This document shows, piece after piece, positions 45,709 through 63,129 of a stretch of DNA of 64,000 nt. The notes under the pieces were generated by a model. That model was not told the DNA's origin, made no database searches, and saw nothing but the letters and a program-made list of their open reading frames with translations. The stretch spans positions 928,001-992,000 of the forward strand of contig OZ245056.1 in the NCBI GenBank assembly GCA_965224705.1. Reading direction: 5' to 3'. The translations under genes and the position numbers were made by a program. This DNA comes from Spirochaetaceae bacterium (GTDB lineage Bacteria > Spirochaetota > Spirochaetia > DSM-2461). How positions within the stretch are numbered: position 1 is the first letter of the stretch; every line of letters begins with the position of its first letter.

Positions 45709-46223
45709 CGGATTCCTCCTCATAAGTTTTTTTCGTGATTCCAATTACCAAAATCGGACAGCCAGCGCCGCTTCCGCCTTCAATCCTGGGAAGTAATCTG
45801 CTCATGTGAGTTGTCGAAGCACCGTAAGAAGAACCTCGGCCTAACGCATCAAAAATATTCTGCAATTCGTCACTTCTTGTTATTATGACACCAACACTTA
45901 TCGCCCTTAAATCAAATAATAAACGGAAATTATTTAAATCTCTGTCATAAAATGGATCTTTGTTATTCCATTCAATCTCTAAAGCAACTCTATTTTTATA
46001 GCAATCTATTTTATGCGTGGGAGACTCCATTTTATGCTCATCGACCACGACTTCTGTTTTGAATTCTTTTTCGGCCCACCCCTTTGAGTACAAAAAGCTG
46101 TCGATTGATTCAGAAATTTTTGATTTTCTTCCCCCTGGAGTGGTAATCCAGGATTTTTTTGACTGAAAATTCGATAGAACATCAATCACATCTTTCCACA
46201 TCATTGGGAAAATCCTGTTTAAG

Positions 46224-46387: not shown

Positions 46388-48072
46388 CCCCTATTTCTCA
46401 CCAAGACCTTGAGACAAAGCAGGCTTCCCATGCTAAAATATTTACATGAAAAAAAATAACAAACAAAAAGAAGCCCGCTTTGCTAATACAGAGTGTAAAG
46501 CCCATCAGCTCGAATTGCAAGGGATGGAAATCGGAAAATCCCGCAAAATTATTGTAAAGAATGACGGCAAGGTCAACAGTTCCGATGCCGGATTTCTTCT
46601 CCTCCAGCAGGTTGAGCAGAAGCACAGAATTATTGAAAAGCTGTCAGATTTTTTCACCGATAAAAGAGATCAGGAAAAAATTACACATAGCCTGGCTACT
46701 CTTCTGAAACAGAGAATCTTCGGAATCTGTCAGGGCTATGAAGATCTCAATGATCATGAACAATTGCGCGAAGATCCACTGCTTCAATATATATGAGGGC
46801 GGGATGATAAAACGCCAGTTGCCGGAAAGAGCACCCTGAACAGATTGGAACTCGGTCATGAGCTGGATGAAAAAACCAGGGACCGGTACAGCAAAATCAC
46901 CTGGGATGCCAGGGGGATTGAAGAGCTTCTCTGTCAACTGTTTCTTGAGAGTTTCGAGGAGCCGCCGGAAACCCTGATTCTGGATTTTGATGCCACCGAC
47001 ATTCCCATCCACGGCGAGCAGCAGCAGCGGTTTTTTCACGGATATTACGATCACTACTGCTACCTTCCGCTCTACGTGTTCTGTGATGATTTTCCCCTGA
47101 TCGCCCGGCTGCGGCCGTCCAGCCTGGATGCCTGTGAGGGTACCGAAGAGATTCTGGTCAAGCTGGTTCGCGCGATCAGGGCCAAATTTCCTGATGTTCG
47201 TATCATTTTTCGTGGAGACTCGGGCTTCTGCCGTGAGAGTATCCTGAAACAGTGTGAGATATTGAAAGTCAGATATATCACCGGTATGGCAGGAAATACG
47301 AGGCTGCTGAAGAAGATTGATCCGCAGATGGTTGAGGCTGAAAAGCTCTTCGGTAAAAGCAAAGAAGCCGAACGTGTTTTTACCCGTTTTTCCTGGAAGA
47401 CCGAAAGCAGTTGGAGTCGCAATCGGGATGTCATTGCCAGGGTGGAACATCTGCCGGGCAAGAAAAATCCCCGCTTTATTGTGACGGACATTTCTGCTGA
47501 AGAAGGGGATGCCCAATCGCTGTATGAAGATGTCTACTGTGCACGCGGCGATATGGAGAATCGCATCAAAGAACAGCAGCTTTATCTGTTTGCCGACCGC
47601 ACCTCCACCTGGTGGATGAGTTCGAATCAGCTTCGATTGTATTTCTCGACAATCGCCTATATTTTCTTTGTCCATCTTCGAAGAACAATTCTGCAGGTCA
47701 GCGGTGATGAAACTCGAAGCATGTCCTCTACAATCCGATTAAGGATGCTTAAAGTTTCGGCCGCTGTAAAGATTACGGTTCGCCGAGTCTGGATCAGTCT
47801 TCCGGAGAGTTTTCCCTGGTGGGACATCTGGATACGAACATCCCGGGCCATCTGAGCGGTAATAAAAACAGTTGATAGTTCTCATCTGGATTCCCTGGGG
47901 AAGCTGTGCACCGAGGGTTGAAAAAATGCAAAAAAAATCAGAAGAAATCGACTTAAATTGGACGGAAATAACAAGGATCAATCAACTGGAAACTTTTTGT
48001 TTGATATATTAGCGGAGAGAACAGAAATTCTCCAGGATTTTTATGCAATTTTATGTTGGTGAGAAATAGGGG
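46388..48072 (+). mobile_element. IS1380-family insertion sequence
   Basis: Perfect 17-bp TIR CCCCTATTTCTCACCAA; CTAA duplication (46384-46387, 48073-48076). Confidence 0.95.
46446..47855 (+). pseudogene. IS1380 transposase with one in-frame TGA
   Basis: SSDAG, GYEDLNDH..LR.DP, STLNRLE, LDFDATD.P.HGEQ, RGDSGF, YCARGDMENRIKEQQ; the two ORFs share one frame, with TGA at 46794-46796. Confidence 0.92.
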
Positions 48073-48277
48073 CTAAGGATGGCGCAAGCGTGTTTCCACT
48101 CGTAAACCTCGAATTTATCACGTATTTTACTCGGTAAGAGTTCCAGTGCCATGATTTCTCCAAAAGGCGGCTTTCAGTGTATCATGTTATGGTCGTCAGG
48201 ACAAGGAGAACTGGAGTATTAGTATGCTCTTTTTACACATAGCGTTCCGCTATTATGCGACGTTCTCTCCGCCAAGG

Positions 48278-48502
48278 CCGCTAGCGGTCCACCCGCGCCC
48301 CCCCTCCGGACACAAGCTTTTCCACCTCCGCAAGGGAAGCCGTGGAAGTGTCCCCGGAAGTTGTCATCGCCAGAGCACCATGGGCGGCCCCGTAGTTCAC
48401 ACAGTCCTGGGGCGGCCTCCCCGTCAGAAAACCATAGATCAAGCCGGAGGCAAAGGAATCGCCGCCGCCCACCCGGTCGAGGATCTCAAGGTTTTCCCAT
48501 CC
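48278..48502 (-). repeat. Displaced duplicate of the kdgK 3' end (direct repeat of 59629-59853)
   Basis: 225 bp, 12 substitutions by manual alignment, identical translation GWENLEILDRVGGGDSF...ARVDR*. Confidence 0.93.
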
Positions 48503-48532
48503 GGGGCTTAAGCCAGAACTCATCTTTGGCCC

Positions 48533-48705
48533 GCATACGGCGCCTAAAAAAGTCGCATACCTATAAGAGAGTGTCTAAGCGATAGCGAAGAAAAGCCGCC
48601 ATGGAGGGCGGCGGAAGCGAACGTAGGCGGCCCGGAAGAAGCATGCAGGAGGCTTGCTTCTGGAGGGGGGAAGGGCAAAAATCGAGCCGTGAGGCCTAAA
48701 TCCGA
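48533..48705 (-). mobile_element. Truncated long-variant MITE family A
   Basis: Matches the right part of 20963-21249 (GCGATAGCGA, GCCGCC-ATGGAG-GGCGGC, GGCAAAAATCGAGCCGTGAGGC); left boundary approximate. Confidence 0.75.
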
Positions 48706-48904
48706 AGTCAAAAAGTATGACGATCTTTTTCATACTTACTCTTTCGTGCGTTTACATCATTTTACTATATATTCGGGCAAAAAGTCATCCCAAGCACTTT
48801 TTTTCATCAACAAGTAGTCACAGAATATCGAGACACAAAAGCTGCGGGATATCCCTTACAAGAACCGTCGGGCCTGCATTTGTTCCATTTTTTGTCAAGC
48901 AATG

Positions 48905-49960
48905 TTATGCTGGATTCTCCCAGACGCTTTTTATGTGAACCGTATTGCCAGTTTCGACGGATAGTTTAAGTGCCTCAATTACTTCCATTACCTTCAATCC
49001 ATTCAATCCCGAGACTATGGGAGATGCTTCCCCTCTTATTACCGCAGCAAAATGCTCCAACTGTGCAATGAGTGGATCTTGAATTTTTTTCATAAATATT
49101 TCAGAGCTGATTGGTTTATACCAATGACGTTCGTCGGTATAGTGCCACAGACGGTTGTTGGGAAGCTCTATAGAGCCATCAGTTCCCCCAATCATACAAT
49201 AGAGCTGATCCGTTTTGGGATAACTGGGATTATCACCCGCGGTTAATTCCCAACTCCACGGAGAGGGAATGGTATCGGACATATTGATGGTGCAGAGTGC
49301 GGAATTTTTGAATTTCGCGATTATTACGGCGGTGTCTTCCACCTCAAAGCTCCTTGTGGCATTGCTGGCATACGCGTGGAGATAGTCAATATCGCCTATG
49401 AAGTATAGCAGCAGATCAATATCGTGCGATAGGTTTATGTTGATGGGACCCGCCCCAGATAGTCGCCGCCATTGATTTTCAAAGTAGCTTTCATCTTTAT
49501 GAAGCCAGAAATGAGTGTGTACCGACACGATCTTTCCTATGCGTCCATTTTCTATCTGTTCTTTTGTCGCTTGCACTACGTTGTTAAATCTTCTAAAGTA
49601 CCCTGTTAGTACTGGAACGTGATTTTTGTCTGCCAGAGCAATAAAATTCCGGGTCTCCTGGATGTTGGTTGCCAGGGGTTTTTCAACCAGCACGGGTATT
49701 CCCTTCCGTACACAGGGCATGGCATGTGTTATGTGAAGCTCGTTGGGTGTCGCAATAATTACTCCGTCCGGGCTTACAGTATCTATCATTTTTTCTATGT
49801 CGTTGAAAAAGGGAATGTCATACCTTTCTGCCGTTTGCTTGCCTTTTTCAGAAACATCTACCACTGCCGCTACATCAACGGAAATAGCCTTCATTGCACT
49901 TTCTATATGACGAACCCCAATAAGACCTGCCCCAACTACGGCAATTTTCGTTTCCTTCAT
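48905..49960 (-). CDS. Gfo/Idh/MocA family oxidoreductase
   Basis: VVGAGLIG, IATPNELH, VLVEKPL, HDID. Confidence 0.93.
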   Translation of the reverse strand: MKETKIAVVGAGLIGVRHIESAMKAISVDVAAVVDVSEKGKQTAERYDIPFFNDIEKMIDTVSPDGVIIATPNELHITHAMPCVRKGIPVLVEKPLATNIQETRNFIALADKNHVPVLTGYFRRFNNVVQATKEQIENGRIGKIVSVHTHFWLHKDESYFENQWRRLSGAGPININLSHDIDLLLYFIGDIDYLHAYASNATRSFEVEDTAVIIAKFKNSALCTINMSDTIPSPWSWELTAGDNPSYPKTDQLYCMIGGTDGSIELPNNRLWHYTDERHWYKPISSEIFMKKIQDPLIAQLEHFAAVIRGEASPIVSGLNGLKVMEVIEALKLSVETGNTVHIKSVWENPA

Positions 49961-50017
49961 TGTTTTCCTTTTTTAGAATCTGTGTGCATTGTCACGGCTT
50001 CATATCCATAAGTGAAT

Positions 50018-51793
50018 TCAATCCGTTGTAGAATGAGACACTTTCTCATCGGGTGAGTAAATATCCAGAATATTCCAATGCCCGGTTGTAGGTGTGGGGT
50101 TATTCTTCATAGGAACATCAATGACTGTGGATTTTTCGCTCGCCAGCGCATTGATCAACGCCGTCTTAAATTCACTTGCCTCTGTTATTCTTATTCCCTC
50201 AATACCGTAGGCTTTTGCGATATCAGCATAGTTTGTATCAGAACGCCTGTTTGTCTGTGCATGCTCAAACAGGGTACCGTACGTTATTCCATAGTGGGCC
50301 TTCTGCAAGCCGGCGATGGTCCCAAAGGCATTGTTGTTCATAACAATCCAGATCACCTGAATATCCAGTTCGCGCGCAGTAGATAATACCGCAGGATTTT
50401 GTCCGAACCCGCCATCTCCAACCATCGATACAACAAGCTTTGATGGAGCTGCCAACTTTGCACCAATTGCCGCCGGAGGACCAAAGCCCATGGTAGCGCA
50501 TCCTCCCGGCGTCAATATGCTGTTTGGGGTAAGGATGTCAAACTGCTGTCCTATCCCATTTTTGTTCCAGCCAACATCGGTAGTTATTATCGCGTCGTCC
50601 GGAAGAACCGCCCTTGTATCCGCGAGAATACGCTCCGGCATCATGGGAAAGCTGGCACTCTCCGTCTCTGCTTGTATACTTTGCTTAAACTCGCGCTTGA
50701 AGTTCTCTATTCTTTCTGCCGCCGCTTCATTTTTCAGTCCCGATGGATATCTCTCCTTGAATATCTTATTGATCAAGGTCAAAGATAGTTTCAAGTCTCC
50801 AATGGCACCGATATGCGCGGGATAGTTTCTCCCTATTTCACTTGCCTCTATATCTATGTGAATGAGTTTCGTGGAATAGGGAATATTGAAGGTGTATCCG
50901 TTTTCCCATGAACTACAATCCGCCTCCTTAAATCTAGTGCCTAAGGCAAATACATAATCCGCGTTGAGGCATGATTGATTCACTAAAGAGGTTCCCCAAA
51001 ATCCAGTCATCCCCATGGCAAAGGGATGAGTATCCGGAATACACCCTTTGCCCATCAAGCTGTAGGCGACGGGAGTATTTGTATGGTTCACAAATTCTTC
51101 CAACTCATGCGATGCCTTTGCCAAAAGGACGCCGCCGCCAGCATAAATGACAGGACACTTTGCCCGGGCAAGGGTCTCTACAATCTCTTCTGCTATTTCA
51201 TAGGATATGCACGGTTTTGATAGCTGTTTTGCTCCCGTCAAACGTTCAAAGAGCTGTGGGTTAATCTCTGTGGAGAAAACATTCATCGGAACATTGACGA
51301 GTACTGGACCCTGCTGTCCGCTCTCGGCTAACAGGAATGCCTTTTCTATGATTTCGGGAAACAGCTCCGCACTCTCTACACGCCATGCGCGTTTTACAAA
51401 TGGCTTGTATATCTCATACTGAGAGGCGTCGGCATGGAGGTTCACCTCTTGGTGAGCATGTTTTCCGTAGTAGTGGGTGGGGATATCCCCCGCGATTACC
51501 ACCATCGGAATACAGTCAAGAGCGGCATTCAGTACCCCTGTAGTGCCGTTTGAGAGCCCCGGAGTGAGATGAGACAGAAAAACGGCCGCCCTACTGCTTA
51601 CTCTTGCGTAGGCATCTGCCGCATGTGCCGCGATCTGTTCGTGCCGGACTGTTATGAATTCTATGGAAGAATCATGGAGTGCGGATAACACCGCGATGTT
51701 GGTGTGCCCGCATAAACCAAATACATGCCGCACCTTTCGCTCTTCAAGATACTTCACTAAAAGCTGTGCTACTGTGTTTTTTCTCTCTTGCAC
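50018..51793 (-). CDS. Thiamine diphosphate-dependent enzyme (ALS/IolD/cyclic dione hydrolase-like)
   Basis: FGLCGHTN, RHEQ.AAHAAD, GGCATMGFG, GDGGF...MNN ThDP motif. Confidence 0.92.
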   Translation of the reverse strand: MQERKNTVAQLLVKYLEERKVRHVFGLCGHTNIAVLSALHDSSIEFITVRHEQIAAHAADAYARVSSRAAVFLSHLTPGLSNGTTGVLNAALDCIPMVVIAGDIPTHYYGKHAHQEVNLHADASQYEIYKPFVKRAWRVESAELFPEIIEKAFLLAESGQQGPVLVNVPMNVFSTEINPQLFERLTGAKQLSKPCISYEIAEEIVETLARAKCPVIYAGGGVLLAKASHELEEFVNHTNTPVAYSLMGKGCIPDTHPFAMGMTGFWGTSLVNQSCLNADYVFALGTRFKEADCSSWENGYTFNIPYSTKLIHIDIEASEIGRNYPAHIGAIGDLKLSLTLINKIFKERYPSGLKNEAAAERIENFKREFKQSIQAETESASFPMMPERILADTRAVLPDDAIITTDVGWNKNGIGQQFDILTPNSILTPGGCATMGFGPPAAIGAKLAAPSKLVVSMVGDGGFGQNPAVLSTARELDIQVIWIVMNNNAFGTIAGLQKAHYGITYGTLFEHAQTNRRSDTNYADIAKAYGIEGIRITEASEFKTALINALASEKSTVIDVPMKNNPTPTTGHWNILDIYSPDEKVSHSTTD

Positions 51794-51927
51794 CTATTTC
51801 CCCTTTTTATTATCAGAGCGTCTCTAAAAAAAAATCCCACCGTGGATTTTTTAGAGACGAAAAACCCGGACTAAAGTAAGGCTTTTCGTCCCAAAATGCG
51901 GGTGCGTCCATGCACCCACGGGCAGCT

Positions 51928-53376
51928 CTAAACGTTTTTAGAGCTGCCTTCAATTTTTTTGTTGTAGAACTCACCAAACAGCTCTTTTTCATCAGGCCGA
52001 TCTTCTTCAATAGGGACGCTAACCCATGTGTACTGTAAATAGTGTTTCAGGCTTACATTTTCATTAGTGATGTTTCCACCCCATATTCCGCAACCCAGAG
52101 AGGAGGTCATCGGCATACCGTTGTTCCATGCCCCCGCATTTGCCTTTGATTGCGGCTGCCTTACCATCATACGACTTACAGGAGCGGCGTTCGCAAGGGC
52201 ATCTATATTCTTCTGATTGTGTGAATATATGCCGCATGAATGCCCCTTCCCCGCGGCATCGTAGATTTTTTGCACAATCTCAAGCGCTCCCGCAAAATTT
52301 TCAAAATGATAGAGCGCCATAAGCGTAGTGAGTTTTTCGGTAGAGAACTTGTGCTCTTTTCCGATTTTGCCCTGATTCTCCACCATCAGAAACTGAACGT
52401 CCCTCGGAATATTAAAACCCGCGTGCTCCGCGATTTGCTGAGGGGGGCAGGCTATGGTTTCAAATGTTCTGCTGCCCTCTTCATTCCACATCGCTTTTTG
52501 CACCAACTGCTTCTCTTCATCAGAGCAGAGATATCCCCCCTCATTTTTCAAGGCCGCAACCATATCATCATAGATAGATCTATCAATAACGATGTTTCCA
52601 TCTGCCGAACAACCAGAACCGAAATCGGAAGTTTTGCTTATTCTCGTGTTTCTTGCGGCAATGGCAATGTCCGCGGTATCGTCAATGACCATTGTGGAGT
52701 TTCCCGCTCCTACACCATACGCGGGTTTTCCAGAGCTGTAAGCGGATTGCACCATCGGTCTTCCGCCAGTTGCAAGTGTTAAATCACATTGCGCCATCAA
52801 TTCTTTCGTAATAGGAATAGACGGTTTCTCTATCACTTGGAAGAGATCTGCTGGCGCGCCAGCGGCAATACATGCGGAACGCAATACTTCCACCATTTGA
52901 GCAGTCGTTTTTTTCGTTCTCGGATGTGGAGAGAAAATGACTGCGTCTTTCGCCTTCGCGGCGTAGAGAGCGGTAACGGGAGGGGTTAACGCGGGATTGG
53001 TCATAGGAATCAAAGAGGCAATTACCCCTGCTGGTTTTGCGTACTTTGCAATGCCTTTCCGTACATCTTCTTCCACCTTGCCCACGCTCTTCTGTCTGAG
53101 CGCGTCTCTCAACACACCATGTATTTTGAACCGCTTGGCAGGACGTCCATTTCTATCCCCTATGCCGCTTTCATCCACACCTAATCGGGCCAGGCGGGTA
53201 AAGGTATCCTCATTTGCGGAATACCACGCAATGGCTTGGCATACCCTGTCCACCTGCGATTGATTCCAGTGGGCGATTTCTTCCATAGCCTTTTTTGCCC
53301 TGGCTATCTTTTCCTCCACCAGATCCTTCTGCTCGGGGCTAAGGATGTATTTTTTGCCGTTTTTTACTGTCTGCAC
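51928..53376 (-). CDS. CoA-acylating aldehyde dehydrogenase (SauS/AdhE-N-like)
   Basis: IPMTNP, FSPHP, LATGG.PMV..AYSSGKPAYGVGAGN, GSGCSAD, EKL, GHSCGI, SLGCG.WGGN. Confidence 0.92.
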   Translation of the reverse strand: MQTVKNGKKYILSPEQKDLVEEKIARAKKAMEEIAHWNQSQVDRVCQAIAWYSANEDTFTRLARLGVDESGIGDRNGRPAKRFKIHGVLRDALRQKSVGKVEEDVRKGIAKYAKPAGVIASLIPMTNPALTPPVTALYAAKAKDAVIFSPHPRTKKTTAQMVEVLRSACIAAGAPADLFQVIEKPSIPITKELMAQCDLTLATGGRPMVQSAYSSGKPAYGVGAGNSTMVIDDTADIAIAARNTRISKTSDFGSGCSADGNIVIDRSIYDDMVAALKNEGGYLCSDEEKQLVQKAMWNEEGSRTFETIACPPQQIAEHAGFNIPRDVQFLMVENQGKIGKEHKFSTEKLTTLMALYHFENFAGALEIVQKIYDAAGKGHSCGIYSHNQKNIDALANAAPVSRMMVRQPQSKANAGAWNNGMPMTSSLGCGIWGGNITNENVSLKHYLQYTWVSVPIEEDRPDEKELFGEFYNKKIEGSSKNV

Positions 53377-53406
53377 TTTTCCTCCTGAATTGTAAGTACT
53401 TCTGTG

Positions 53407-54270
53407 TTATATCAACCTATCTGGTACGCTGCGGTATTTTGATCTCACACGCCAACACTCTTCCAGTATGAGATAATTTTTTGTGTCTTGTAGAATGTAC
53501 TCGGCAAACCGTAGAGACCCCAAATGGCGATGCAGTCTTTTGTTTGGAATCTCAAGCGAAAATATTTCGCAACTGATATTGTCCAGGTAATTGAGTATCG
53601 CTATATCACCTCGGCCAGCAGGATATCTTGCCTCACGCGCGATATGCTTTTGCCCCTTGAAACTCTTTATCCCTTTGCCCTTCGCATCGCACAAGTGAAC
53701 AAAATGCAGATGCTTTTGATCTATTGCTTTCAATTCATTCGGATCGGTCCTGGTTCTATAGAGATGCAATAGATCCAGCAATATGCCGGAGTTCTCACAC
53801 TGCGCGTCTCTTACAAATTTATTTGTGGTCTGAACATCCGCCAGGGATGACCACGGAATCATTTCCACTACTACGGATATGTTATACTGTGAGGCGAATT
53901 CACATATCTGCCGAAACTTATCCAGGCTGACATTCAAATTTGTACTGTGAACTTGGGCAATAGCATACTTCGCACCTATTTGAGCCGCGGTATCGAGTAT
54001 TGGAAAAAATTCTGTACGTATATCAGTGTCGTCCTCTATCACAAGTAACTCTACATCAAGCACCTTCACACGGCTGTCGGCCAAAATTTTTTGACACTCG
54101 GTAATCGCATGTTTATCTCCCACAAGCCTGTACTTCTCTTCCTCTTGAGTAACCGAACGCAAACGAGGACTAACATATTCATAGCTGGCTTGATGAGCGA
54201 TCTTTATCAGGTTAAATATCGTTTCATCGATCAAACTTAAATGGGCTAAAGAAAATTTACTGGTGATCAT
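53407..54270 (-). CDS. Sugar phosphate isomerase/epimerase (xylose-isomerase-like TIM barrel)
   Basis: SLAHLS, DVEL, VEMIPW, LDLLH, HLCDA, R..AG.G, SLEIP. Confidence 0.85.
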   Translation of the reverse strand: MITSKFSLAHLSLIDETIFNLIKIAHQASYEYVSPRLRSVTQEEEKYRLVGDKHAITECQKILADSRVKVLDVELLVIEDDTDIRTEFFPILDTAAQIGAKYAIAQVHSTNLNVSLDKFRQICEFASQYNISVVVEMIPWSSLADVQTTNKFVRDAQCENSGILLDLLHLYRTRTDPNELKAIDQKHLHFVHLCDAKGKGIKSFKGQKHIAREARYPAGRGDIAILNYLDNISCEIFSLEIPNKRLHRHLGSLRFAEYILQDTKNYLILEECWRVRSKYRSVPDRLI

Positions 54271-55081
54271 CTTTTACTCCACTCTGCTTGTAATATGGTA
54301 TAAAGTCCCTTGGAATAGGTCCTTTGTTTTTCGTGCCGCTTTGCATCTCTTCCCACGCATGCGCGAGGATCCCCACCCCGCGAGCCAAACAAAAGAGTCC
54401 ACGGCAAAGCGGAGCGGGTATTCCCAATTCACAGAAAATAATGGCAGCAGCACCATCTACATTCATGGGAATGGGCATTGATTTGCCTTGACTGATTTGC
54501 CGCTGTACTTCCAAAGCAATATCCTTGAACACACCGCTAATGTGTCCGTCACGCACGCAGCTCTCAACTATCTCAACCGTCTTCAGCGCGCGCGGATCTG
54601 AATTTTTGTGAAATCGATGACCATAACCCGGAATTGTCTTTCCATGCTTCGCTCTCTGTGCCGCAAGGCCATCCGCGACACTTCTTTGCATGGGTGTTCC
54701 TGTGTTCATTTCGCGCGCTATCGCGTAGAAAAGCTCTGCACACCCTTGCCCTGCTCCCCCATGGTTGTCTCCCAATACGTTGATGGCACTTGCAAGCACA
54801 TTGTTAATGCTTATTCCACAAGTAGATGACATTCTGGCAATGGCTATGGATGGAGCCTGCGGACCGTGATCTACAGACATTACCATTGCTACATCAAAGA
54901 GCTTTGCCTCTTCGGGAGTAAGATTTTTTCCCAGGATCACAAGCAGCATCATTTGGGAAAATGATTTTGCCTCCATCAAATCCTCAATGGGCGAACCGCG
55001 GAAACTGATACTCCCGGGTTTCATGTCTATGATTGAATTCTCCCACCACTTTTCTACCTTAAGACGATCTTCACTCTTCAT
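54257..55081 (-). CDS. Citryl-CoA lyase-like protein
   Basis: VDHGPQAPS, LGDNHGGAG, IPGYGHRFH..DPR, NVDGA; small citrate-synthase-like fold. Confidence 0.9.
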   Translation of the reverse strand: MKSEDRLKVEKWWENSIIDMKPGSISFRGSPIEDLMEAKSFSQMMLLVILGKNLTPEEAKLFDVAMVMSVDHGPQAPSIAIARMSSTCGISINNVLASAINVLGDNHGGAGQGCAELFYAIAREMNTGTPMQRSVADGLAAQRAKHGKTIPGYGHRFHKNSDPRALKTVEIVESCVRDGHISGVFKDIALEVQRQISQGKSMPIPMNVDGAAAIIFCELGIPAPLCRGLFCLARGVGILAHAWEEMQSGTKNKGPIPRDFIPYYKQSGVKDDHQ

Positions 55082-55259
55082 CCTGCTTCTCTCGAAGTGT
55101 ATGTAAAACTAAAATTTATTATATGTCAAGGGCAATATCATAAATTATTAAAAATATATGATATTTTAGATCTCTATACGGAAGTGTGGATAATTTCAGA
55201 TTGTCACCTATGTATTACGAAAAAAAGAGAACCGTTCTTCTACGAGCACAAACTCCCTA

Positions 55260-55907
55260 TTATTCGGTGAACAACTGAGAAGCCTTGTAGATATGTTCTT
55301 TGAGAACCTTTGATGCGCCGGAAGCATTACGCTCCAGGCAGTACTGCAGAAGTGCTTTGTGCTCCTCTGCCGCGACAACTCCCCGAAATCCCAAAGCGTT
55401 TATTTGATAGCGCAAATACTTCGTATAGATGATTTCGTGAAGAGACATAAGCTCTGTAGAGTTAGAGGCAGACACGATTGCCTTGTGAAACTCAAAGTCA
55501 GCGATACACAAATCGTAGGAATTGTAGTCCCTATTATTCATAAACTTCTCTTCATATTTGTGCAATCGATAGTGAGCCGCTATTATTTGGCTCTCCCAGT
55601 TAAGATCGCCCTCTTTGAGAGATAGTTTCATCATGTCCGCCTCAAGCAAATACCGTAGATAGATAAGTTCATCCAAATGCTTTTTTGTGAGAGGTGCCAC
55701 ACAAAATCCTTTTTGCTCTTCCGCGACAATGAATCCGTCGTTGGTCAATCTGTTAAGCACTTCACGAATTGTGGATATGCTGACGTTGTAACCATTTTTT
55801 AATTCGGTTAGCTTCAGCTTTTGCCCCGCCTTCAATGTGCCGTGAATTACATCGTGCAAGATGGTATGGTAGGCGATAGTGCCGACAGATCTGCTTTCTT
55901 TGCTCAT
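55260..55907 (-). CDS. GntR (FCD) family transcriptional regulator
   Basis: wHTH (VSISTIREVLNRL..DGFI), QKGF.V, FHKAI, EEH. Confidence 0.93.
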   Translation of the reverse strand: MSKESRSVGTIAYHTILHDVIHGTLKAGQKLKLTELKNGYNVSISTIREVLNRLTNDGFIVAEEQKGFCVAPLTKKHLDELIYLRYLLEADMMKLSLKEGDLNWESQIIAAHYRLHKYEEKFMNNRDYNSYDLCIADFEFHKAIVSASNSTELMSLHEIIYTKYLRYQINALGFRGVVAAEEHKALLQYCLERNASGASKVLKEHIYKASQLFTE

Positions 55908-56187
55908 TTATCAACCCTGCTTCTTCTCCCGAAGTCCCTTCATGGATTGCAATGCTATCATATAATCTCGAAAAAATGCAATGAAATACATGGAATGATA
56001 TTTCAAATCGTGTATGGAATTATATTTTTCTCCCATCCCTCACTCTTGGAAACCCAACAGAGAAAAACATTTATATCGGTTAAAAGTATTTTTTTATGAT
56101 ATTTTCCAAAAAATATTATATTTTCGCTATTGACAAAAAAAATATATGTTGTAGAGTGATAAAAGCAAAAATATTTGGAGGTCACAA

Positions 56188-57192
56188 ATGAAGAAATTTG
56201 TAATTGCTTTGCTGTTAACATCTGTTTCTGCCGCACTGTTCGCGGGCGGAGGCGGTGAAAAAGAGGCTGGAGCTTCTGCTGAGGAGGAGGTTGTCATCCG
56301 ATTGGCAACTTCGGCTTCAGGGACTGAAGTGCGCTCACTGGCGGTTAAGGAATATGTGGGGGGAGCCGTCAATGAATTCGGAAAGTTTGAAACGTATTGG
56401 AATTCCACCCTCTTCAAGCAAGGAACAGAGCTCGACGCGTTGGCTCGCGGAAACCTGGAAATGGTGCTTACTTCCGCACAGGAGATTGCACAGTTTATTC
56501 CTGAATTCTCTATCTTTGCAACTGGCTATGTGCATAGAGACGCCCAGCATCAAATTGCCGTATTCAATGCCGACTACATGGATGAGTTCAAGAAAATGAC
56601 TGAGGAAAAACTGAAACTAAAGCTCCTGAGTGTTGTCTATCTCGGCAGACGGAACTTAAACTTGAGGGGAGACAAGGTAATCAACACTCCCGCCGACTTA
56701 AAGGATGTAAAGCTGCGTATGCCCGGTTCAAACGCGTGGCAATTCCTCGGAAAGGCGCTGGGAGCCAATCCTACACCCATTGCCTTCGCAGAGGTTTATA
56801 CGGCACTCCAAAGCGGAGCCGTGGATGGACAGGATAATCCAATTCCGACTACAATCGATAAGAAGTTTTATGAAGTAACTAACCAGGTTATCTTGACAGG
56901 ACATTTAGTGGACTTGAACTATTTGGGTATTTCTGTTGATCTCTGGAATAAACTTACGCCCGAACAACGGCAGAAACTTCAAGACGCCGCGGACATGGTC
57001 ACCGACTCCGTATGGAGAAAACAGTCCGAGTTGGAAAAAGAGCAGGTCACATTCTTAGAGGAGCAGGGCTTAAAGGTCTATTCCCCAGATGTGGACGCAT
57101 TTCGCACACATGTGCAGCAGGAGTATTTGAATTCAGAATTCTCTCAGCAATGGCCTGAAGGATTACTGGAAAAAATCAACAACACAAAGTAG
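56188..57192 (+). CDS. dctP: TRAP transporter substrate-binding protein
   Basis: Signal peptide, KLRMP, LGANPTP, EVYTALQSGAVDGQDNP, FYEV. Confidence 0.93.
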   Translation: MKKFVIALLLTSVSAALFAGGGGEKEAGASAEEEVVIRLATSASGTEVRSLAVKEYVGGAVNEFGKFETYWNSTLFKQGTELDALARGNLEMVLTSAQEIAQFIPEFSIFATGYVHRDAQHQIAVFNADYMDEFKKMTEEKLKLKLLSVVYLGRRNLNLRGDKVINTPADLKDVKLRMPGSNAWQFLGKALGANPTPIAFAEVYTALQSGAVDGQDNPIPTTIDKKFYEVTNQVILTGHLVDLNYLGISVDLWNKLTPEQRQKLQDAADMVTDSVWRKQSELEKEQVTFLEEQGLKVYSPDVDAFRTHVQQEYLNSEFSQQWPEGLLEKINNTK

Positions 57193-57232
57193 TTCAGCCT
57201 ATGTAGGCTGAGGCCGCTTTTTAGGATTCAAA

Positions 57233-57784
57233 ATGCAGCGGAAAATAGCAAAAGGGTTCCACACCACCATAAAAGTTACAAAATTGATTGCGAACTACAT
57301 CGGCGCAGCAATGCTGCTTGTTATTTTCCTTGCGTTTTGTATCAACGTCATTTTGCGATACACCTTAGGCATATCTTTTGGATGGATTGTTGAATTTTCT
57401 CTTATTCTATGGCTCTGGGTAGTTTTTCTTGGAGCGGGTATATTTTTAGAAAACGATGACCACGTTTCTCTTGTCTATATGTACAGGGCGTTTCACAAGA
57501 AAATACGCCTCTCGCTGAAGGCATTCGCCTGCTCAGTTATTTTCTTCGGCGGTTTTTTTATGATCGCGCCAGTGTGGGATTATGTGGATTTCCTAAAAAT
57601 CAGATACAGCGATGTCATCGGCATCCCGATGAACAATATTTTTTCTGTTTATAAGATATTCCTGATCTCCCTCATTCTAAGATATGGGTATTTGGTTCTT
57701 GGATATGTGCGTGAGTTGTTTTATGTGGAAGACACGGAAGATCATACTCGTTCCGAACCTCCCGCAGGACAAGGGTACGAGTAG
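57233..57784 (+). CDS. dctQ: TRAP transporter small permease
   Basis: Four TMs, V.LRY, W..E, W.VFLGA, HVS. Confidence 0.9.
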   Translation: MQRKIAKGFHTTIKVTKLIANYIGAAMLLVIFLAFCINVILRYTLGISFGWIVEFSLILWLWVVFLGAGIFLENDDHVSLVYMYRAFHKKIRLSLKAFACSVIFFGGFFMIAPVWDYVDFLKIRYSDVIGIPMNNIFSVYKIFLISLILRYGYLVLGYVRELFYVEDTEDHTRSEPPAGQGYE

Positions 57785-57809
57785 GCACGGAGATTGAGTT
57801 AATACCACC

Positions 57810-59105
57810 ATGGGCACAGAACTTATTGTTTTCATAATATTGCTGCTTCTGCTCGTATTGCTGGAGTTGCCCATCTCTATTTCAATAATTTTCGCGACTA
57901 TCGGCTTTCTGCTTGTATCGGGACAGGATTTGGCGATTGTTGCGGAACAGCTTCTCAATTCCCTCTTCACCAATTATCTATTGCTCGCGGTCCCGCTGTT
58001 CATCTTGTCAGCCAATCTTATGAATGCCTCAAGAGTAACAGATAAGTTATTGGATTTCTGCCTTGCGCTAGTTGGGCGCTTCAAGGGCGGCCTTGGACAC
58101 GTTAATATTGTCCTTTCCCTCATCTTCTCCGGTATGTCTGGTTCGGCCGTTGCGGATGTTGCCGGCGTCGGGAAAATCATTGTCCCGATGATGACCAAGG
58201 AAAATAAGTACAGTAGAGGATATGCCGCCGCAATAACTGCTGCCTCTTCGACAATAGGTCCAATTGTTCCCCCTTCAATTCCCATGGTGCTTTATGCGCT
58301 TGTTTCTAACGCGTCAATAGGGTATCTCTTTTTGGGAGGCATTCTTCCCGGCATCATTATGGCGATTGTGTTGATGATGATTAATGCCTCTATCGCCCGA
58401 AAAAAGAATTTCGCAGTAGAGAAAGTGGCTCCCTTAAGAGAGCTGCCGAAGAAAACCGCTGTCGCATTTCCTTCCCTTATGCTTCCCGTAATTCTGTTGT
58501 ACGGGATATACGGTGGAGTAATGACCGCGACAGAAGCCGCAGCCATTGCGGCGCTGTACGCGCTTTTAATTGATATAGTGATATACCGCGGATTGACTTT
58601 TAAGAAATTTGTGAAGGCGATGTCAGATACAGCAAGAGCCTCCGCTGCGGCGGGCTTCATTGTGGGGAGCTCACTGATAATGAACTACGTGGTCGTAAGT
58701 CAGAACATTCCCGGCATGCTTTTCGGCATGTTTGAAAGTATTCATATACATCCGTTCCTGTTTATGCTTATGATCAACGTACTGGTACTCGCCTTGGGGT
58801 GCCTGTTGGATGCCTCGGTCATTATACTGGTCATAATCCCCCTCTTCCTTCCAACCGTCGAGAATTTAGGAATCGATATAGTCTATTTTGGAGTGGTTAT
58901 CGTCATTAATTGTATGATTGGACTCATCACACCACCGTACGGAGTTATCATTTTGGTAATAAACTCTATTATGAAGATACCCCTTGGTGAGATAGTAAAA
59001 GAAATATGGCCGTTCTTATTATCACTGATTGGTTTTTTGATTCTTCTAATACTGTTCCCAGATATAGTACTTTTCATCCCCAGACTATTAGGATATCAGG
59101 GATAG
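57810..59105 (+). CDS. dctM: TRAP transporter large permease
   Basis: LAVPLF, GGLGHVNI, SGSAVAD, PPSIP, TATEAA, GLITPPYG. Confidence 0.95.
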   Translation: MGTELIVFIILLLLLVLLELPISISIIFATIGFLLVSGQDLAIVAEQLLNSLFTNYLLLAVPLFILSANLMNASRVTDKLLDFCLALVGRFKGGLGHVNIVLSLIFSGMSGSAVADVAGVGKIIVPMMTKENKYSRGYAAAITAASSTIGPIVPPSIPMVLYALVSNASIGYLFLGGILPGIIMAIVLMMINASIARKKNFAVEKVAPLRELPKKTAVAFPSLMLPVILLYGIYGGVMTATEAAAIAALYALLIDIVIYRGLTFKKFVKAMSDTARASAAAGFIVGSSLIMNYVVVSQNIPGMLFGMFESIHIHPFLFMLMINVLVLALGCLLDASVIILVIIPLFLPTVENLGIDIVYFGVVIVINCMIGLITPPYGVIILVINSIMKIPLGEIVKEIWPFLLSLIGFLILLILFPDIVLFIPRLLGYQG

Positions 59106-59197
59106 CGCTTCTCTTTATCGAGTCTTGGAAAGGGCCAAAAAATATTTCAAAGACAAATGTCAACAACTCGAAAATGAGTTGGACTGGTAAATGTATA

Positions 59198-59335
59198 AGG
59201 CGCCTCTAAAAAACCCGCTTGCGGAATCTGGCGCAGAGATTTTTTACTAATACAAGGCGACAAAAGCTCAAGCTAGCTTAAGCTGCGTGAGCATTTTGGC
59301 AGCGCAGCAGCAGTGGTAAAGATCAAGCCAGAAGC
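59198..59335 (+). mobile_element. Truncated, diverged MITE family B copy
   Basis: AGGCGCCTCTAAAAAACCCGC...CAAGGCGACAAAAGC...GTGAGCATTTTGGC...GATCAAGCCAGAA matches 36130-36265; right TIR missing. Confidence 0.8.
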
Positions 59336-59631
59336 AGTCATGCCTAATGCCGCATTTTAGCGAAAACTGAATCCATACAGATTCCGGTCTGCATTATTGT
59401 ATCCAGTTTTTGCTGTATGCGTCGGACTTGTTTGCATACATTGCAGCTTTTTGAGTGTCGTTTTGGACCATTGAGTTTTCCCGCAGGTATTCACACAGCA
59501 TAAGCATCGCCCCTAAACGCAAGGCATAGCCATCCTGTACCGCATACATAGCTCCATAAATTTGAAAATCCTCAAAATGGTTTCACAGAAGGTGAAACCT
59601 AAATGCGCAAATAGGGGCTAAAATATCTCCG

Positions 59632-60726
59632 CTAGCGGTCCACCCGAGCTCCCCCTCCGGACACAAGCTTTTCCACCTCCGCGAGGGAGGCTGTGGAAGT
59701 GTCCCCGGAGGTTGTCATGGCCAGGGCACCGTGGGCGGCCCCGTAGTTCACACAGTCCTGGGGCGGCCTCCCCGTCAGAAAACCGTAGATCAAGCCGGAA
59801 GCAAAGGAATCGCCGCCGCCCACCCGGTCGAGGATTTCAAGGTTTTCCCATCCCATGGATTCATGAAATGCCCCTTCACAGTACAATAATGCTCTCCAAT
59901 CATTTAAGGTGGCCGTCCTGACTTCCCGCAGAGTGGCCGCCACCGCCTTGAAATTCGGATAGGCATCAACCGCCCGTTTCATCATCCGGCGATAGCTTTC
60001 AATCTTCAGATTGTTCACATCCCCCTCATCGACGGGTATACCCAGGGCGGCGGAGAAGTCCTCTTCGTTGCCCAGCATAACATCCACCAGCGGGGCTATC
60101 CGGCGATTGACCTCCTGGGCCCGGGGCTGTCCTCCCCTAAACTGCCACAGAGAGGGCCGATAGTTAAGATCGTAGCTCACGATGGTTCCCGCTGCTTTGG
60201 CGGCCTTCATCGCTTCAATGCTTATCTCGGCGGTGGTATCCGAGAGAGCGGCAAAAATACCACCGCAGTGGAACCAGCGTACCCCCTCGTTCCCGAAAAG
60301 GCTTCTCCAATCCACGTCTCCGGGCTTCAGGGCGGAGGCGGCCGTATGTCCCCGGTCAGATACTCCTTTGGCCCCCCTTATGCCAAATCCCCTCTCCACG
60401 AAGTTCAAGCCCTGCCTGGCGGAAAGACCCATCCCATCATAGGGATACCATTTTGCCCTGGAGATATCCACTCCTCCCTGAAAAAGGAGGTCCTCCAGAA
60501 GATATCCCAGTTCGTTTTCAGGAATCCCCGTGATGACAGTGCTGCGCTGACCGAAACAGCGTTTCAATCCTCTCATGACATTGTACTCACCGCCTCCTTC
60601 CCATACATTGAAGGAACGGGCCGTCCTTACCCTTCCTTCTCCGGGATCGAAGCGGAGCATGATTTCCCCCATGGCGGCGGCATCCCAACGGCACTCGGAT
60701 GATGGACGGATTTTTAGTTTATCCAT
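59632..60726 (-). CDS. kdgK: 2-keto-3-deoxy sugar acid kinase (PfkB family)
   Basis: GEIMLR.DP, GGGEYNV, SYDLNYRPSLW, GNEEDF, DRVGGGDSF; start at MDKLK after GGAGGA. Confidence 0.9.
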   Translation of the reverse strand: MDKLKIRPSSECRWDAAAMGEIMLRFDPGEGRVRTARSFNVWEGGGEYNVMRGLKRCFGQRSTVITGIPENELGYLLEDLLFQGGVDISRAKWYPYDGMGLSARQGLNFVERGFGIRGAKGVSDRGHTAASALKPGDVDWRSLFGNEGVRWFHCGGIFAALSDTTAEISIEAMKAAKAAGTIVSYDLNYRPSLWQFRGGQPRAQEVNRRIAPLVDVMLGNEEDFSAALGIPVDEGDVNNLKIESYRRMMKRAVDAYPNFKAVAATLREVRTATLNDWRALLYCEGAFHESMGWENLEILDRVGGGDSFASGLIYGFLTGRPPQDCVNYGAAHGALAMTTSGDTSTASLAEVEKLVSGGGARVDR

Positions 60727-61708
60727 GATTTTTTCCTCCACTGGCAGGGATTTTGAACACCGGATGCAAGGCCTCTTCACCCCGCAAAACCCTGACCACT
60801 TCCTCAGCGGCCCTCCGTTTTAGATCAGTTTTGGCCTCCTCCGAATACCAGGCCGCATGGGGTGTCAGAACAACATGCGGAAACTTTCTCAACGGACTAT
60901 CCTTTTCAAGGGGTTCAACCTCGCAAACATCGATTCCTGCACCGGCCAGCTGCCCGTTTTCCAGAGCCTCGACCAGCGCATTCTGATCCACAAGTCCACC
61001 CCGGGCGGTATTGATGAGAACCGAGCCTTTTTTCATTTTCCGGAAGCTTTCCCGATTAAACAGGTGGTAAGTATCCTCCGTCAGGGGAGCATGGAGGCTT
61101 ATTGCATCGGATTGGGATAGAAGGGTGTCAAAATCGACGTGTTCGATGTCCTGCTGAGCGATGAGATCAGGGTCCATGAAGGGATCGGCGGCTATCACGC
61201 GGAAGCCGAAAGCCCTTGCCTTCCGCGCCGTCTCCGCGCCGATGCGGCCGCATCCGGTCAAACCAAGGGTGAGGGTGGACAGACGCCGCAGGGGAACCGC
61301 TTTTTTCACATCCCAGATACCGTTCTTTACCTGACTGTTCAGAAAGGACACCTTTCTCAGAACGTTCAAAAGCAGGGTAAGCGTGTGGTCGGAAACCTCC
61401 GCGACCCCGTAGTCGGGGACATTGGCAACCACCACCCCATGCCGTGCAGCCGAATCAAGATCGATGGAATCGACACCGACACCGTATCGGGCAATGACTT
61501 TGAGCTTCTTCAATGCCTGAAAAACCCCTTCGGTGATCGGCGCATATTGAACGATGAGCGCGTCCGCATCCTTTGCCTGGGCGATAAGCTCCGATTCAGT
61601 ACGGCATTGAAGGGGGATGAGGGCCGCGTCAATCGTGGAGATTACCGCTTCCTCTTCTTTGAGCGAAGCGTAGTCGAAATCGGTGACATAGATGGAATAT
61701 CGGTTCAT
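60719..61708 (-). CDS. D-2-hydroxyacid dehydrogenase family protein
   Basis: ARYGVGVD, NVPDY...EV.DH, GCGRIG, INTARGG, LTPH.AWYS. Confidence 0.92.
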   Translation of the reverse strand: MNRYSIYVTDFDYASLKEEEAVISTIDAALIPLQCRTESELIAQAKDADALIVQYAPITEGVFQALKKLKVIARYGVGVDSIDLDSAARHGVVVANVPDYGVAEVSDHTLTLLLNVLRKVSFLNSQVKNGIWDVKKAVPLRRLSTLTLGLTGCGRIGAETARKARAFGFRVIAADPFMDPDLIAQQDIEHVDFDTLLSQSDAISLHAPLTEDTYHLFNRESFRKMKKGSVLINTARGGLVDQNALVEALENGQLAGAGIDVCEVEPLEKDSPLRKFPHVVLTPHAAWYSEEAKTDLKRRAAEEVVRVLRGEEALHPVFKIPASGGKNHG

Positions 61709-62808
61709 GCGTCTTTCTCCACCTGGAATTCATCCAGTTTCTCCCAATCGAATTCAACGCCGATGCCCGGGGAATCCGGTGCCCGGGCGATGCCGTCTTC
61801 CACCCTTACCGGATATTGCGTGTATTGATCGATGAAAAAAGAATGGATTTCCATGTATCCCGCGTGGGGCATGGCGGCCAGAAGACTCACATGGAGTTCC
61901 TGCATGCCGTGGGTACAGACCGGAAGGTGAAAACATTTGGCCAGAGCGGCCACCCTCAGCCAGCCGGTGATGCCGCCGACGTTGGACGCATCGGGGGTGG
62001 GGTAGGCTATCCGCCCGTACTGCATGGCCAGACGGTGCTGGTTTTCAGAATGAAGATTCTCTCCCATGGCGAGTGATAGTGCACAGCGGCGGTTCAGTTC
62101 CCTGTATCCGTCAAAATGACGGGGATTCAGCGGTTCTTCCAGCCAGTAGATGTTCTGTCTTTGCAGCTCCGGCGCGGCCTTCAGCACCGTTGGAATATCC
62201 CAGGACGCATTGGCATCGATCATGAAATCTCTTTCCGGGCCAATCATCTCACGGACAGCACGCACCCTCTGAAGATCTTCCTCCAGGTTTTTTTTGCCGA
62301 CCTTGATTTTCACCGCCCTATGCCCTGCCTCAAGCTGAGCTTGAAGGCTGGACAGAAGCTCTTCCTGGGTGAACCCAAGATCAATACCCCCGTAATAGCA
62401 GTTTACCTCCCTGTGTTGACCCCCGATCATCCGCCACAGAGGCAATCCCGCCGCCCGGCACCGGAGATCCCAGAGGGCAATATCCACCGCTGAGATCGCG
62501 AAGGAGGAAATACCTCCCCGACCGACATAGTTGACCCGGACCGTCATTTCTTCGGTCAGATTTTCCACGGCCGCCGCATCCTTCCCCAGAATCACCGGGA
62601 TGATATCGTCCTGAATCATCGCCCGGATGGCCCTGCCGCCGAATCCGCCGGTGTAGGTGTAACCGGTTCCCATCAGACCGTTTTCCAGTTCCACCGTCGC
62701 GGTCAGTATCTCAAAATGGGTCTGTTCACCGTGTTCCGCATCGACAAGAGGAAGCTCCAGAGGAATGCGGTAATGACCCACCCTCACATCTTTAATCGTT
62801 CTTTCCAT
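61705..62808 (-). CDS. Enolase-superfamily (mandelate racemase subgroup) enzyme resembling 3,6-anhydrogalactonate cycloisomerase
   Basis: KIKVG, MIDAN, WLEEP, MGENLH; family-like segments DA.HG...HFE, GTGYTYTGG.GG, YVGRGG, PDASN.GGITGW, CTHGMQELHVSL, EIHSF. Confidence 0.85.
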   Translation of the reverse strand: MERTIKDVRVGHYRIPLELPLVDAEHGEQTHFEILTATVELENGLMGTGYTYTGGFGGRAIRAMIQDDIIPVILGKDAAAVENLTEEMTVRVNYVGRGGISSFAISAVDIALWDLRCRAAGLPLWRMIGGQHREVNCYYGGIDLGFTQEELLSSLQAQLEAGHRAVKIKVGKKNLEEDLQRVRAVREMIGPERDFMIDANASWDIPTVLKAAPELQRQNIYWLEEPLNPRHFDGYRELNRRCALSLAMGENLHSENQHRLAMQYGRIAYPTPDASNVGGITGWLRVAALAKCFHLPVCTHGMQELHVSLLAAMPHAGYMEIHSFFIDQYTQYPVRVEDGIARAPDSPGIGVEFDWEKLDEFQVEKDA

Positions 62809-62827
62809 ATTTTCAGTCCTGTCTGCC

Positions 62828-63090
62828 TTACTTGTTCATCAAAAGATTAGGAAGAAATGTGACCAAAAGAAGCACAACAACCAGCATGAGGCTCAGCCCG
62901 ATAATGATTCCCGGAAGAATCCCTCCGAACAGCAGGCGGCCGATCGATGTTCCGCTGACGATCCCAAAGATGACCGGGGGAATGCTCGGCGGAACGATGG
63001 GGGCCACCGTGGACGAGGTAGCGGTGATGCCCGCAGAATAGTCCCGGTCATAACCGGCATCCAGCATCGCCTTCATTTCAATCTGTCCGA
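62828..63090 (-). pseudogene. Internally deleted dctM remnant
   Basis: AGYDRDYSAGITATSSTVAPIVPPSIP...GGILPG joined directly to a terminal TM. Confidence 0.8.
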
Positions 63091-63129
63091 AGAGCTGCTC
63101 ACTTCTTCCGTAGCTGTGTTCAAACTCCA

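Follow-up and report, generated by a model that had tools for sequence, protein, structure and literature searches.

A 64,000-nucleotide stretch of the genome of a Spirochaetaceae bacterium (GenBank assembly GCA_965224705.1, contig OZ245056.1, positions 928,001 to 992,000; hereafter the window) carries, at positions 48905-59105, a nine-gene cluster that encodes a TRAP importer, a GntR-type regulator and an operon of five enzymes. Judged from its gene content and that of related loci, the cluster is real and coherent and probably encodes an undescribed, non-aromatic pathway for the catabolism of quinate and shikimate. The route that we consider likely, each step of which we infer, runs independently of O2 from quinate through 3-dehydroquinate, 1-hydroxy-3,4-dioxocyclohexanecarboxylate, homocitrate semialdehyde and homocitryl-coenzyme A (CoA) to acetyl-CoA and 2-oxoglutarate; its formulae and mass balance close. 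A preliminary description of the window had proposed ring cleavage of a quinate-like acid to a homocitryl-CoA-like thioester, followed by release of acetyl-CoA and 2-oxoglutarate, and this proposal gains genomic support from linkage to shikimate- and quinate-pathway (aro/qui) genes and from alternating lyase folds.

In the proposed scheme, the TRAP transporter would import quinate and possibly shikimate. The Gfo/Idh/MocA protein would oxidize quinate to 3-dehydroquinate; AroE-type or zinc-dependent dehydrogenases adjoin the cluster in other genomes. Shikimate could enter through the AroE and AroQ proteins of the host itself. A xylose isomerase-like TIM-barrel metalloprotein would then dehydrate 3-dehydroquinate at C4-C5, with loss of the C5 hydroxyl and retention of that at C1, to give 1-hydroxy-3,4-dioxocyclohexane-1-carboxylate, which would amount to dehydroshikimate dehydratase chemistry on a ring retaining its C1 hydroxyl. 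The thiamine diphosphate (ThDP)-dependent enzyme would hydrolyze the C3-C4 bond, in the manner of CDH (cyclohexane-1,2-dione hydrolase), to yield homocitrate semialdehyde whose short arm bears the aldehyde group; the CoA-acylating aldehyde dehydrogenase (ALDH) would convert this to homocitryl-CoA, and a lyase with the citrate synthase fold would split the thioester into acetyl-CoA and 2-oxoglutarate. The GntR protein would control both divergent units. Since a retro-Claisen lyase needs a 3-hydroxyacyl-CoA, the C1 hydroxyl must stay. Accordingly, dehydroquinate is favored over dehydroshikimate as the substrate of the dehydratase, and the reversible dehydroquinases AroD and AroQ are explained as a means of shikimate entry.

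All nine open reading frames are intact, and Pfam and NCBIfam searches confirmed the families that had been assigned to the importer, the regulator and the five-enzyme operon. The enzyme genes lie on the minus strand and are transcribed in the order citryl-CoA lyase-like protein (54257-55081; proposed homocitryl-CoA lyase), TIM-barrel protein (53407-54270; PF01261; proposed 3-dehydroquinate 4,5-dehydratase), acylating ALDH (51928-53376; proposed acylating homocitrate-semialdehyde dehydrogenase), ThDP enzyme (50018-51793; TPP_enzyme N, M and C domains; proposed cyclic 1,2-dione hydrolase) and Gfo/Idh/MocA NAD(P)-dependent dehydrogenase (48905-49960; PF01408/PF02894; proposed quinate, or cyclitol carboxylate, dehydrogenase). 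The lyase and TIM-barrel genes overlap by 14 nucleotides. The GntR/FCD-family gene (55260-55907, minus strand; PF00392 and PF07729) is situated 178 bp upstream of the lyase gene, and dctPQM (56188-59105, plus strand) is divergent, comprising the solute-binding protein DctP (56188-57192; PF03480), the small permease DctQ (57233-57784; PF04290) and the large permease DctM (57810-59105; PF06808, with TIGR00786 above its cut-off). Among the NCBIfam families listed, a cut-off was passed by the lyase alone of the five enzymes (NF004864, 359 bits against 261). A multicopy non-coding repeat occupies 51852-51927, where it separates the ALDH gene from the ThDP gene inside the operon, and a second lies at 59197-59333; these have about 25 and more than 100 matches in the genome, respectively.

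The grouping of these families is not due to chance, because 58 loci (numbered with the prefix L) repeatedly show them as neighbors of the ThDP gene and a 15-bp candidate operator is shared with loci that have orthologous GntR genes. The 58 loci were obtained by a scan for the ThDP gene (47-68% identity) and include members of the Proteobacteria, Bacillota, Fusobacterium, Desulfobacterota and Actinomycetota; 43 of them extend over at least 15 kb. Neighboring families were counted by profile searches over six frames, and the p values and co-occurrence tests for these loci ignore kinship. The acylating ALDH was present in 47 of the 58, the TIM-barrel protein in 40 and a C-C lyase in 46. An AroE, AroD, AroQ or QuiC-like gene lay within 10 kb of the ThDP gene in 45 loci (38 without QuiC) and in 35 of the 43 longer ones, against a chance expectation of ∼1.4% for a random 20-kb segment of the host genome. 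Use of cleaned profiles, by which the AroE of L024 became a partial match, lowered the total to 44. The linkage to shikimate and quinate genes that the preliminary description had proposed as a check was thus observed in most loci. Individual counts were 22 for AroE-type dehydrogenases, 18 for AroQ, 8 for AroD, 18 for QuiC-like proteins and 12 for AroB/AroK, and further neighbors were the Gfo orthologue (11), a zinc dehydrogenase (8), a CaiB CoA-transferase (15) and a non-acylating ALDH (10). Hardly any major clade of the ThDP tree lacked aro/qui genes, and the linkage is made by genes that are not homologous to one another.

Several functions of the cluster are filled by alternative proteins. 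The C-C lyase has the fold of 3-hydroxy-3-methylglutaryl-CoA lyase (HMGL) in 25 loci and the citrate synthase fold (citryl-CoA lyase-like, CCL) in 21, and the two were never found together (0/58; Fisher p = 1e-7, uncorrected for kinship); they swap several times on the ThDP tree, for example between L044 and L057, at L018 and at L031. AroD and AroQ, two unrelated dehydroquinases, are mutually exclusive across the loci. Of 11 loci lacking the acylating ALDH, 7 have a non-acylating ALDH together with the CaiB CoA-transferase. That two lyase folds, two dehydroquinases and two aldehyde-to-thioester routes alternate is the pattern predicted by a homocitryl-CoA-like end point, and, because the citrate synthase-fold lyase alternates with HMGL-fold lyases, the context argues for a lyase substrate other than citryl-CoA. 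The replacement of the acylating ALDH, seen at L003, L004, L005, L007, L024, L039 and L010, implies a free homocitrate intermediate in those clusters.

The QuiC-like neighbors bear on the aromatizing step of the classical route. In the clusters most like that of the window, these two-domain proteins have lost their Glu/Asp/Glu metal ligands; QuiC-like proteins without the ligands stand beside the cluster, for example, at L011 (4810-6768), L036 (1758-3644), L098, L104, L106, L125, L131, L134 and L150-L152, and intact ones were found at L100, L121, L130 and L040-L043. With the ligands lost or QuiC absent, the aromatizing step is dismantled or missing in this lineage, although it coexists with the cluster elsewhere.

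Inspection of the polypeptide sequences revealed conserved catalytic positions in four of the enzymes, the TIM-barrel protein (discussed below) being one of them. The best PDB match of the lyase was the citryl-CoA lyase 6hxp (E = 2.8e-29), and residues H72, H107, H155, R164, D209 and R234 were invariant in 15 homologues; H107, H155 and D209 correspond to the catalytic His/His/Asp set, which, together with the family HMM score, places the protein among the citryl-CoA lyase-like enzymes. The ALDH, whose best PDB matches were the acetylating ALDH 5j78, AdhE and the acylating succinate-semialdehyde dehydrogenase 8cei, has the catalytic Cys, His and Glu of the acylating clade; of 41 homologues, 40 keep C256 and 38 keep E347 and H379, and gaps account for the remainder. 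In the ThDP enzyme, the GLCGHT motif pointed out in the preliminary description was located at residues 26-31, and five of its six positions (G26, L27, G29, H30 and T31) were invariant in 25 aligned homologues, as were E52, H75, H114, Q115 and the GDG...NN motif. CDH has a histidine in a GHT loop, which may be the counterpart.

A number of observations weigh against the proposed route. No aro/qui gene was found in the window itself, and some of the aro genes elsewhere (L013, Acidimicrobiia) could be neighbors with a biosynthetic function. Eighteen of the 58 loci (10 of the 43 longer ones) lack the TIM-barrel gene, and checks of five whole genomes failed to find it in two. Intact QuiC adjoins the cluster in the Steroidobacteraceae loci L040-L043. 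The Gfo protein is not a known quinate dehydrogenase and may, given its co-occurrence with AroE, have another role; its best model, IolG, scored 142 bits against a cut-off of 355, and it has no informative solved relative. By sequence, the ThDP enzyme, likened in the preliminary description to CDH and IolD, is no nearer to either than to the acetolactate synthases (AHAS). It fell below every NCBIfam cut-off among the best 25 of 53 families (AHAS, 406 against 538), and its score with the IolD model TIGR04377 (228 against 715) is close to the 218 bits of the host's other ThDP enzyme. Among its solved relatives, CDH ranked under AHAS, BbmA and glyoxylate carboligase, with E values of 7e-42 in a single-sequence search and of 3e-72 in a profile search, versus 1e-104 for AHAS. 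The stereochemistry of the thioester, the relatives of the TIM-barrel protein and the closest relative of DctP are further points of this kind, and each has a bearing on an alternative explanation.

In terms of Cahn-Ingold-Prelog descriptors, dehydroquinate would give (R)-homocitryl-CoA; citrate synthase-fold lyases cleave (3S)-citryl-CoA, and the (R) thioester suits homocitrate synthase-like folds. It is therefore conceivable, though unlikely, that the chemistry is as proposed but that the Gfo/CCL version of the cluster found in the window uses another cyclitol carboxylate or stereochemical series, leading to the mirror-image dione and (S)-homocitryl-CoA. Gfo would then oxidize quinate at a different hydroxyl, or act on an isomer of quinate, and the product would suit the citrate synthase-fold lyase. 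Besides the stereochemical argument, this alternative is favored by the pairing of Gfo with the CCL in seven loci and with the HMGL in one (p = 0.016, kin not being independent) and by the co-occurrence of Gfo and AroE in many loci. The CCL, however, also pairs with AroE where there is no Gfo (L003, L018 and L057), and loci whose ThDP enzymes are closely related, for instance L044 and L057, have exchanged HMGL and CCL, which suggests one shared product.

The TIM-barrel protein retains E136, D166, D195, R212, R215 and E240 in all of 28 homologues. It had been cast in the role of IolE, to which no match appeared in the NCBIfam comparison; its nearest solved relatives by profile are instead Lmo2234 (1e-20) and IolI (8e-20), followed by QuiC1 (1e-10) and AsbF (4e-8), and a comparison with the ESM Atlas returned generic TIM-barrel names only. 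With Lmo2234 and IolI ranking above the dehydratases, the protein could be an isomerase. A second alternative, slightly less probable than the first, accordingly makes it an IolI-like ketol isomerase and has the ThDP enzyme cleave the α-hydroxyketone directly in a retro-acyloin reaction, with acetyl-CoA and a 4-hydroxy-2-oxoglutarate-type acid or semialdehyde as the products. The ranking of the relatives and the lack of the TIM-barrel gene in some clusters are in its favor. Such a route would leave over a second aldehyde or a hydroxy-oxo acid, for which no conserved gene was seen among the neighboring clusters, and the metal and arginine positions of the protein align with those of QuiC1, the QuiC model being its sole, if weak, NCBIfam match (E = 1.8e-6; 27 bits against a cut-off of 1200). 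Dehydration of 3-dehydroquinate continues to be the favored reading of this step. Separately, AroQ and a cupin adjoin the ThDP gene at L020 and at the Desulfobacterales loci L033, L034 and L035, where the TIM-barrel protein is absent; dehydration may there have given way to a reaction of the cupin.

The only close solved relative of DctP is PDB 4pf6, the RD1_0742 protein of Roseobacter denitrificans (59% identity, E = 7e-119), on which the predicted model of DctP superimposes with a Z score of 37.7 and a root mean square deviation of 3.1 Å over 300 residues. We take the ligand bound in 4pf6 to be 3-deoxy-d-manno-oct-2-ulosonic acid (Kdo). In its ring form, Kdo is similar to quinate in having a tertiary hydroxy-acid carbon, an adjacent CH2 and a vicinal diol, and it is therefore plausible that one protein family binds both. 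TRAP binding proteins at ∼60% identity are described as mostly isofunctional (PMC5788505), and the neighborhoods of the DctP clade were therefore examined as an independent anchor. Of 251 genomes sampled from one alphaproteobacterial family (that of genome G061), 58 have the clade, and 40 of these loci, chosen for sufficient flank, were analyzed. An AroE, AroQ or QuiC-like gene was found in 28 of the 40 (AroE or AroQ in 21) and the Gfo orthologue in 22, 11 of which also have AroE. The ThDP gene was detected in 17 of the 251 genomes, and 14 of those 17 have the DctP clade as well.

The relationship to RD1_0742 also invites an explanation in which the substrate is Kdo or a related 2-keto-3-deoxy sugar acid, broken down by ThDP-dependent decarboxylation to a 2-deoxy-aldose, acylating oxidation and retro-Claisen cleavage to acetyl-CoA and an aldose. 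The identity of the two binding proteins, the isofunctionality expected at that level and an adjoining kdgK-like kinase gene speak for this, yet we judge it improbable. In a quick DctP tree of 50 rows, in which the window's protein occupies a long branch, both of the compared RD1_0742 motifs are shared by a 13-row subclade (support 98). A DapA/NAL-type aldolase is encoded at six of the subclade's loci, and four of the six also have a PfkB kinase, as Kdo use would lead one to expect; the ThDP gene is missing from all 13 genomes. The DctP of the window lies outside this subclade, is of the other motif type and has no DapA/NAL-type aldolase as a neighbor. The split is not a clean one, AroE being present at 4 of the 13 subclade loci and two NAL-bearing loci falling outside it. 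Kdo degradation would, moreover, leave the aro/qui linkage, the dehydrogenase and the TIM-barrel protein unexplained, and kdgK is part of the host flank (57% GC, against 45% in the cluster). Binding of a linear sugar acid by DctP, which the preliminary description had said would tell against its proposal, is hinted at by the 59% identical relative but does not follow cleanly from it. At six loci (L110, L113, L114, L117, L124 and L126) in Rhodobacteraceae-type genomes, the binding protein has the RD1_0742 motifs and adjoins a DapA/NAL-type aldolase, frequently together with a PfkB kinase; these loci represent candidate operons for Kdo uptake and catabolism.

Least probable is that the ThDP enzyme is a carboligase, a decarboxylase or similar to sulfoacetaldehyde acetyltransferase, in a cluster for sulfonate or C2 metabolism: the best model of the ALDH is SauS, and AHAS and glyoxylate carboligase are the best matches of the ThDP enzyme, but the scores lie far under the cut-offs (Xsc, 274 against 620; SauS, 442 against 600), and no sulfonate-pathway family occurs among the annotated recurrent neighbors. 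The sulfonate pathway was rejected on these scores, the inositol pathway on those for IolG and IolD given above and the missing IolE match, and a citrate pathway because cut-offs were not reached. The classical aromatic route was likewise rejected: no QuiC beyond the weak match to the TIM-barrel gene itself was detected in the 3.0-Mb host genome (95% complete), in which the intradiol dioxygenase family PF00775, LigB (PF02900) and UbiD (PF01977) were also not found. In favor of the O2-independent reading, COX1 (heme-copper oxidase) was not found there either, and the genome has three POR_N matches.

Oxygen-independent breakdown of quinate remains the favored reading, and it can be set against known systems. 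In the myo-inositol pathway, a Gfo/Idh/MocA protein carries out the oxidation, a TIM-barrel protein the dehydration that leads to a cyclic 1,2-dione, and a ThDP enzyme the ring hydrolysis, and a CoA-acylating ALDH follows; the order of chemistry proposed here is like that of IolG, IolE, IolD and IolA. In contrast to that pathway, the proteins of the cluster fall under the Iol cut-offs, no IolB, IolC or IolJ orthologue is among the recurrent neighbors, the last enzyme is a C-C lyase for an acyl-CoA, and shikimate-pathway genes are linked to the cluster. The proposed final step has the retro-Claisen release of acetyl-CoA from a 3-hydroxyacyl-CoA in common with citryl-CoA lyase (6hxp), HMG-CoA lyase and reversed homocitrate synthase, and the lyase keeps the His/His/Asp set; unlike a true citryl-CoA lyase, it is a distant homologue (E = 3e-29) with no citryl-CoA synthetase among the recurrent neighbors and with homocitryl-CoA as the proposed substrate. 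As far as can be read from its genes, the cluster couples what resembles the initial half of inositol catabolism to homocitrate synthesis run backwards and, by the comparisons made here, is a member of neither.

The product of CDH is an aldehyde-acid, the type of product proposed for the ThDP enzyme. CDH (PDB 2pgn) likewise belongs to the ThDP decarboxylase family and cleaves a cyclic 1,2-dione, and its H28 is named there only as a mutated site (H28A variant) (PMC12247030). The ThDP enzyme of the window differs in being a distant homologue with a proposed substrate that bears the C1 hydroxyl and a carboxylate. With classical quinate/shikimate catabolism (QuiA or AroE/YdiB, QuiB/AroD/AroQ, QuiC/AroZ and protocatechuate dioxygenase), the cluster shares entry substrates, the first oxidation and neighbor families, and pcaGH adjoins the DctP clade at some loci (L099 and L100). 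Unlike the classical route, the proposed pathway would involve neither aromatization nor an oxygenase; QuiC is absent from the window and has lost its metal ligands in the closest clusters, and neither of the two families of ring-cleavage dioxygenase that were searched for was found in the host genome.

Textbook catabolism of quinate and shikimate proceeds via protocatechuate and needs oxygenases. Ilyobacter insuetus and Propionivibrio limicola reportedly ferment these compounds without O2 or aromatic intermediates; to our knowledge, none of the enzymes involved has been identified, and we know of no genes assigned to fermentative non-aromatic growth on quinate or shikimate. No published description of the route proposed here was found in the literature searched, which did not include subscription journals and supplements. 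Quinate and shikimate are abundant plant acids, for which the cluster offers a complete proposed route of five enzymes, and its carriers include both anaerobes (Bacillota, Fusobacterium and Desulfobacterota) and aerobes, among them the 17 alphaproteobacterial genomes mentioned above. Cultured carriers include Geosporobacter ferrireducens, Anaerosphaera spp. and Desulforhopalus singaporensis. We put at somewhat better than even the broader reading in which an oxygen-independent, non-aromatic quinate/shikimate route with three new activities (a dehydroquinate 4,5-dehydratase, a hydroxy-dioxo-cyclohexanecarboxylate hydrolase and a homocitryl-CoA lyase evolved from two folds), and with Gfo/Idh/MocA proteins as a new class of quinate dehydrogenase, has moved between marine Proteobacteria and the spirochaete. 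If the route is correct, homocitrate chemistry would acquire a catabolic role, several large unannotated families would acquire functions, and the labels "acetolactate synthase," "citryl-CoA lyase" and "SiaP" would be corrected. The window holds a minimal version without an aro/qui gene and thus a clean system for reconstitution; what it adds is the lateral arrival of the cluster in a spirochaete, between boundaries that could be defined, along with a candidate operator and a DctP clade separated from a probable Kdo subclade.

Upstream of the lyase gene, the candidate GntR operator AATATATGATATTTT (55153-55167, plus strand) overlaps a promoter-like site (55190-55163, minus strand). This 15-mer has one exact copy in the host genome and is exact in 9 of 145 loci, from seven genomes. 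When up to two mismatches are allowed, 17 of 28 loci with a GntR orthologue contain it, versus 7 of 70 without, counts that are inflated by the AT richness of some of the genomes. Weaker copies lie upstream of dctP, and the distribution of the copies suggests one regulon. The short motif ATGATATT is marginal by itself, and promoter-like sites are no more frequent than in shuffled sequence.

The cluster lies within a segment, at about 48503-59628, that is an island acquired horizontally, apparently through recombination at the end of a kdgK-like gene. Its left boundary is a non-coding copy of that gene's final 74 codons (48278-48502, minus strand), which forms a direct repeat with the right boundary (59629-59853, minus strand), the 3' end of the intact PfkB-type kinase gene (59632-60780). 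The repeat is 225 bp long with 94.7% identity and has only these two copies in the host genome; the copies differ at 12 synonymous and no non-synonymous sites, so that both must once have been coding. GC content is 45% in 48503-59628 compared with 51-55% in the flanks. The ThDP gene was found in none of 60 relatives of the host, and the window is sister to the gammaproteobacterial locus L001 on both the ThDP tree and the quick DctP tree. The kdgK flank of the nearest relative matches the host genome elsewhere, such that an empty site is not demonstrable.

Three FlaA matches in the host genome, against none in 14 control genomes, point to a spirochaete. Outside the window, the host genome has one AroE-domain gene and one AroQ, and CaiB was not found in it. 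The sole AroE domain is part of a 511-residue open frame (C1:673480-675012, minus strand) that also gives a weak AroD-like match. To the left of the island, an MT-A70 methyltransferase with a BglII-family endonuclease (45034-46204, minus strand) precedes a DDE transposase that seems to be divided between two reading frames (46446-47855, plus strand), the right end of which (47856-48075) has 11-15 matches in the genome. To its right, at 59632-63759 on the minus strand, the KdgK-like kinase, a D-2-hydroxyacid dehydrogenase, an enolase-superfamily protein resembling talarate/galactarate dehydratase and TRAP fragments, including a short piece of DctM at 62828-63130, make up a separate, partly decayed sugar-acid cluster.

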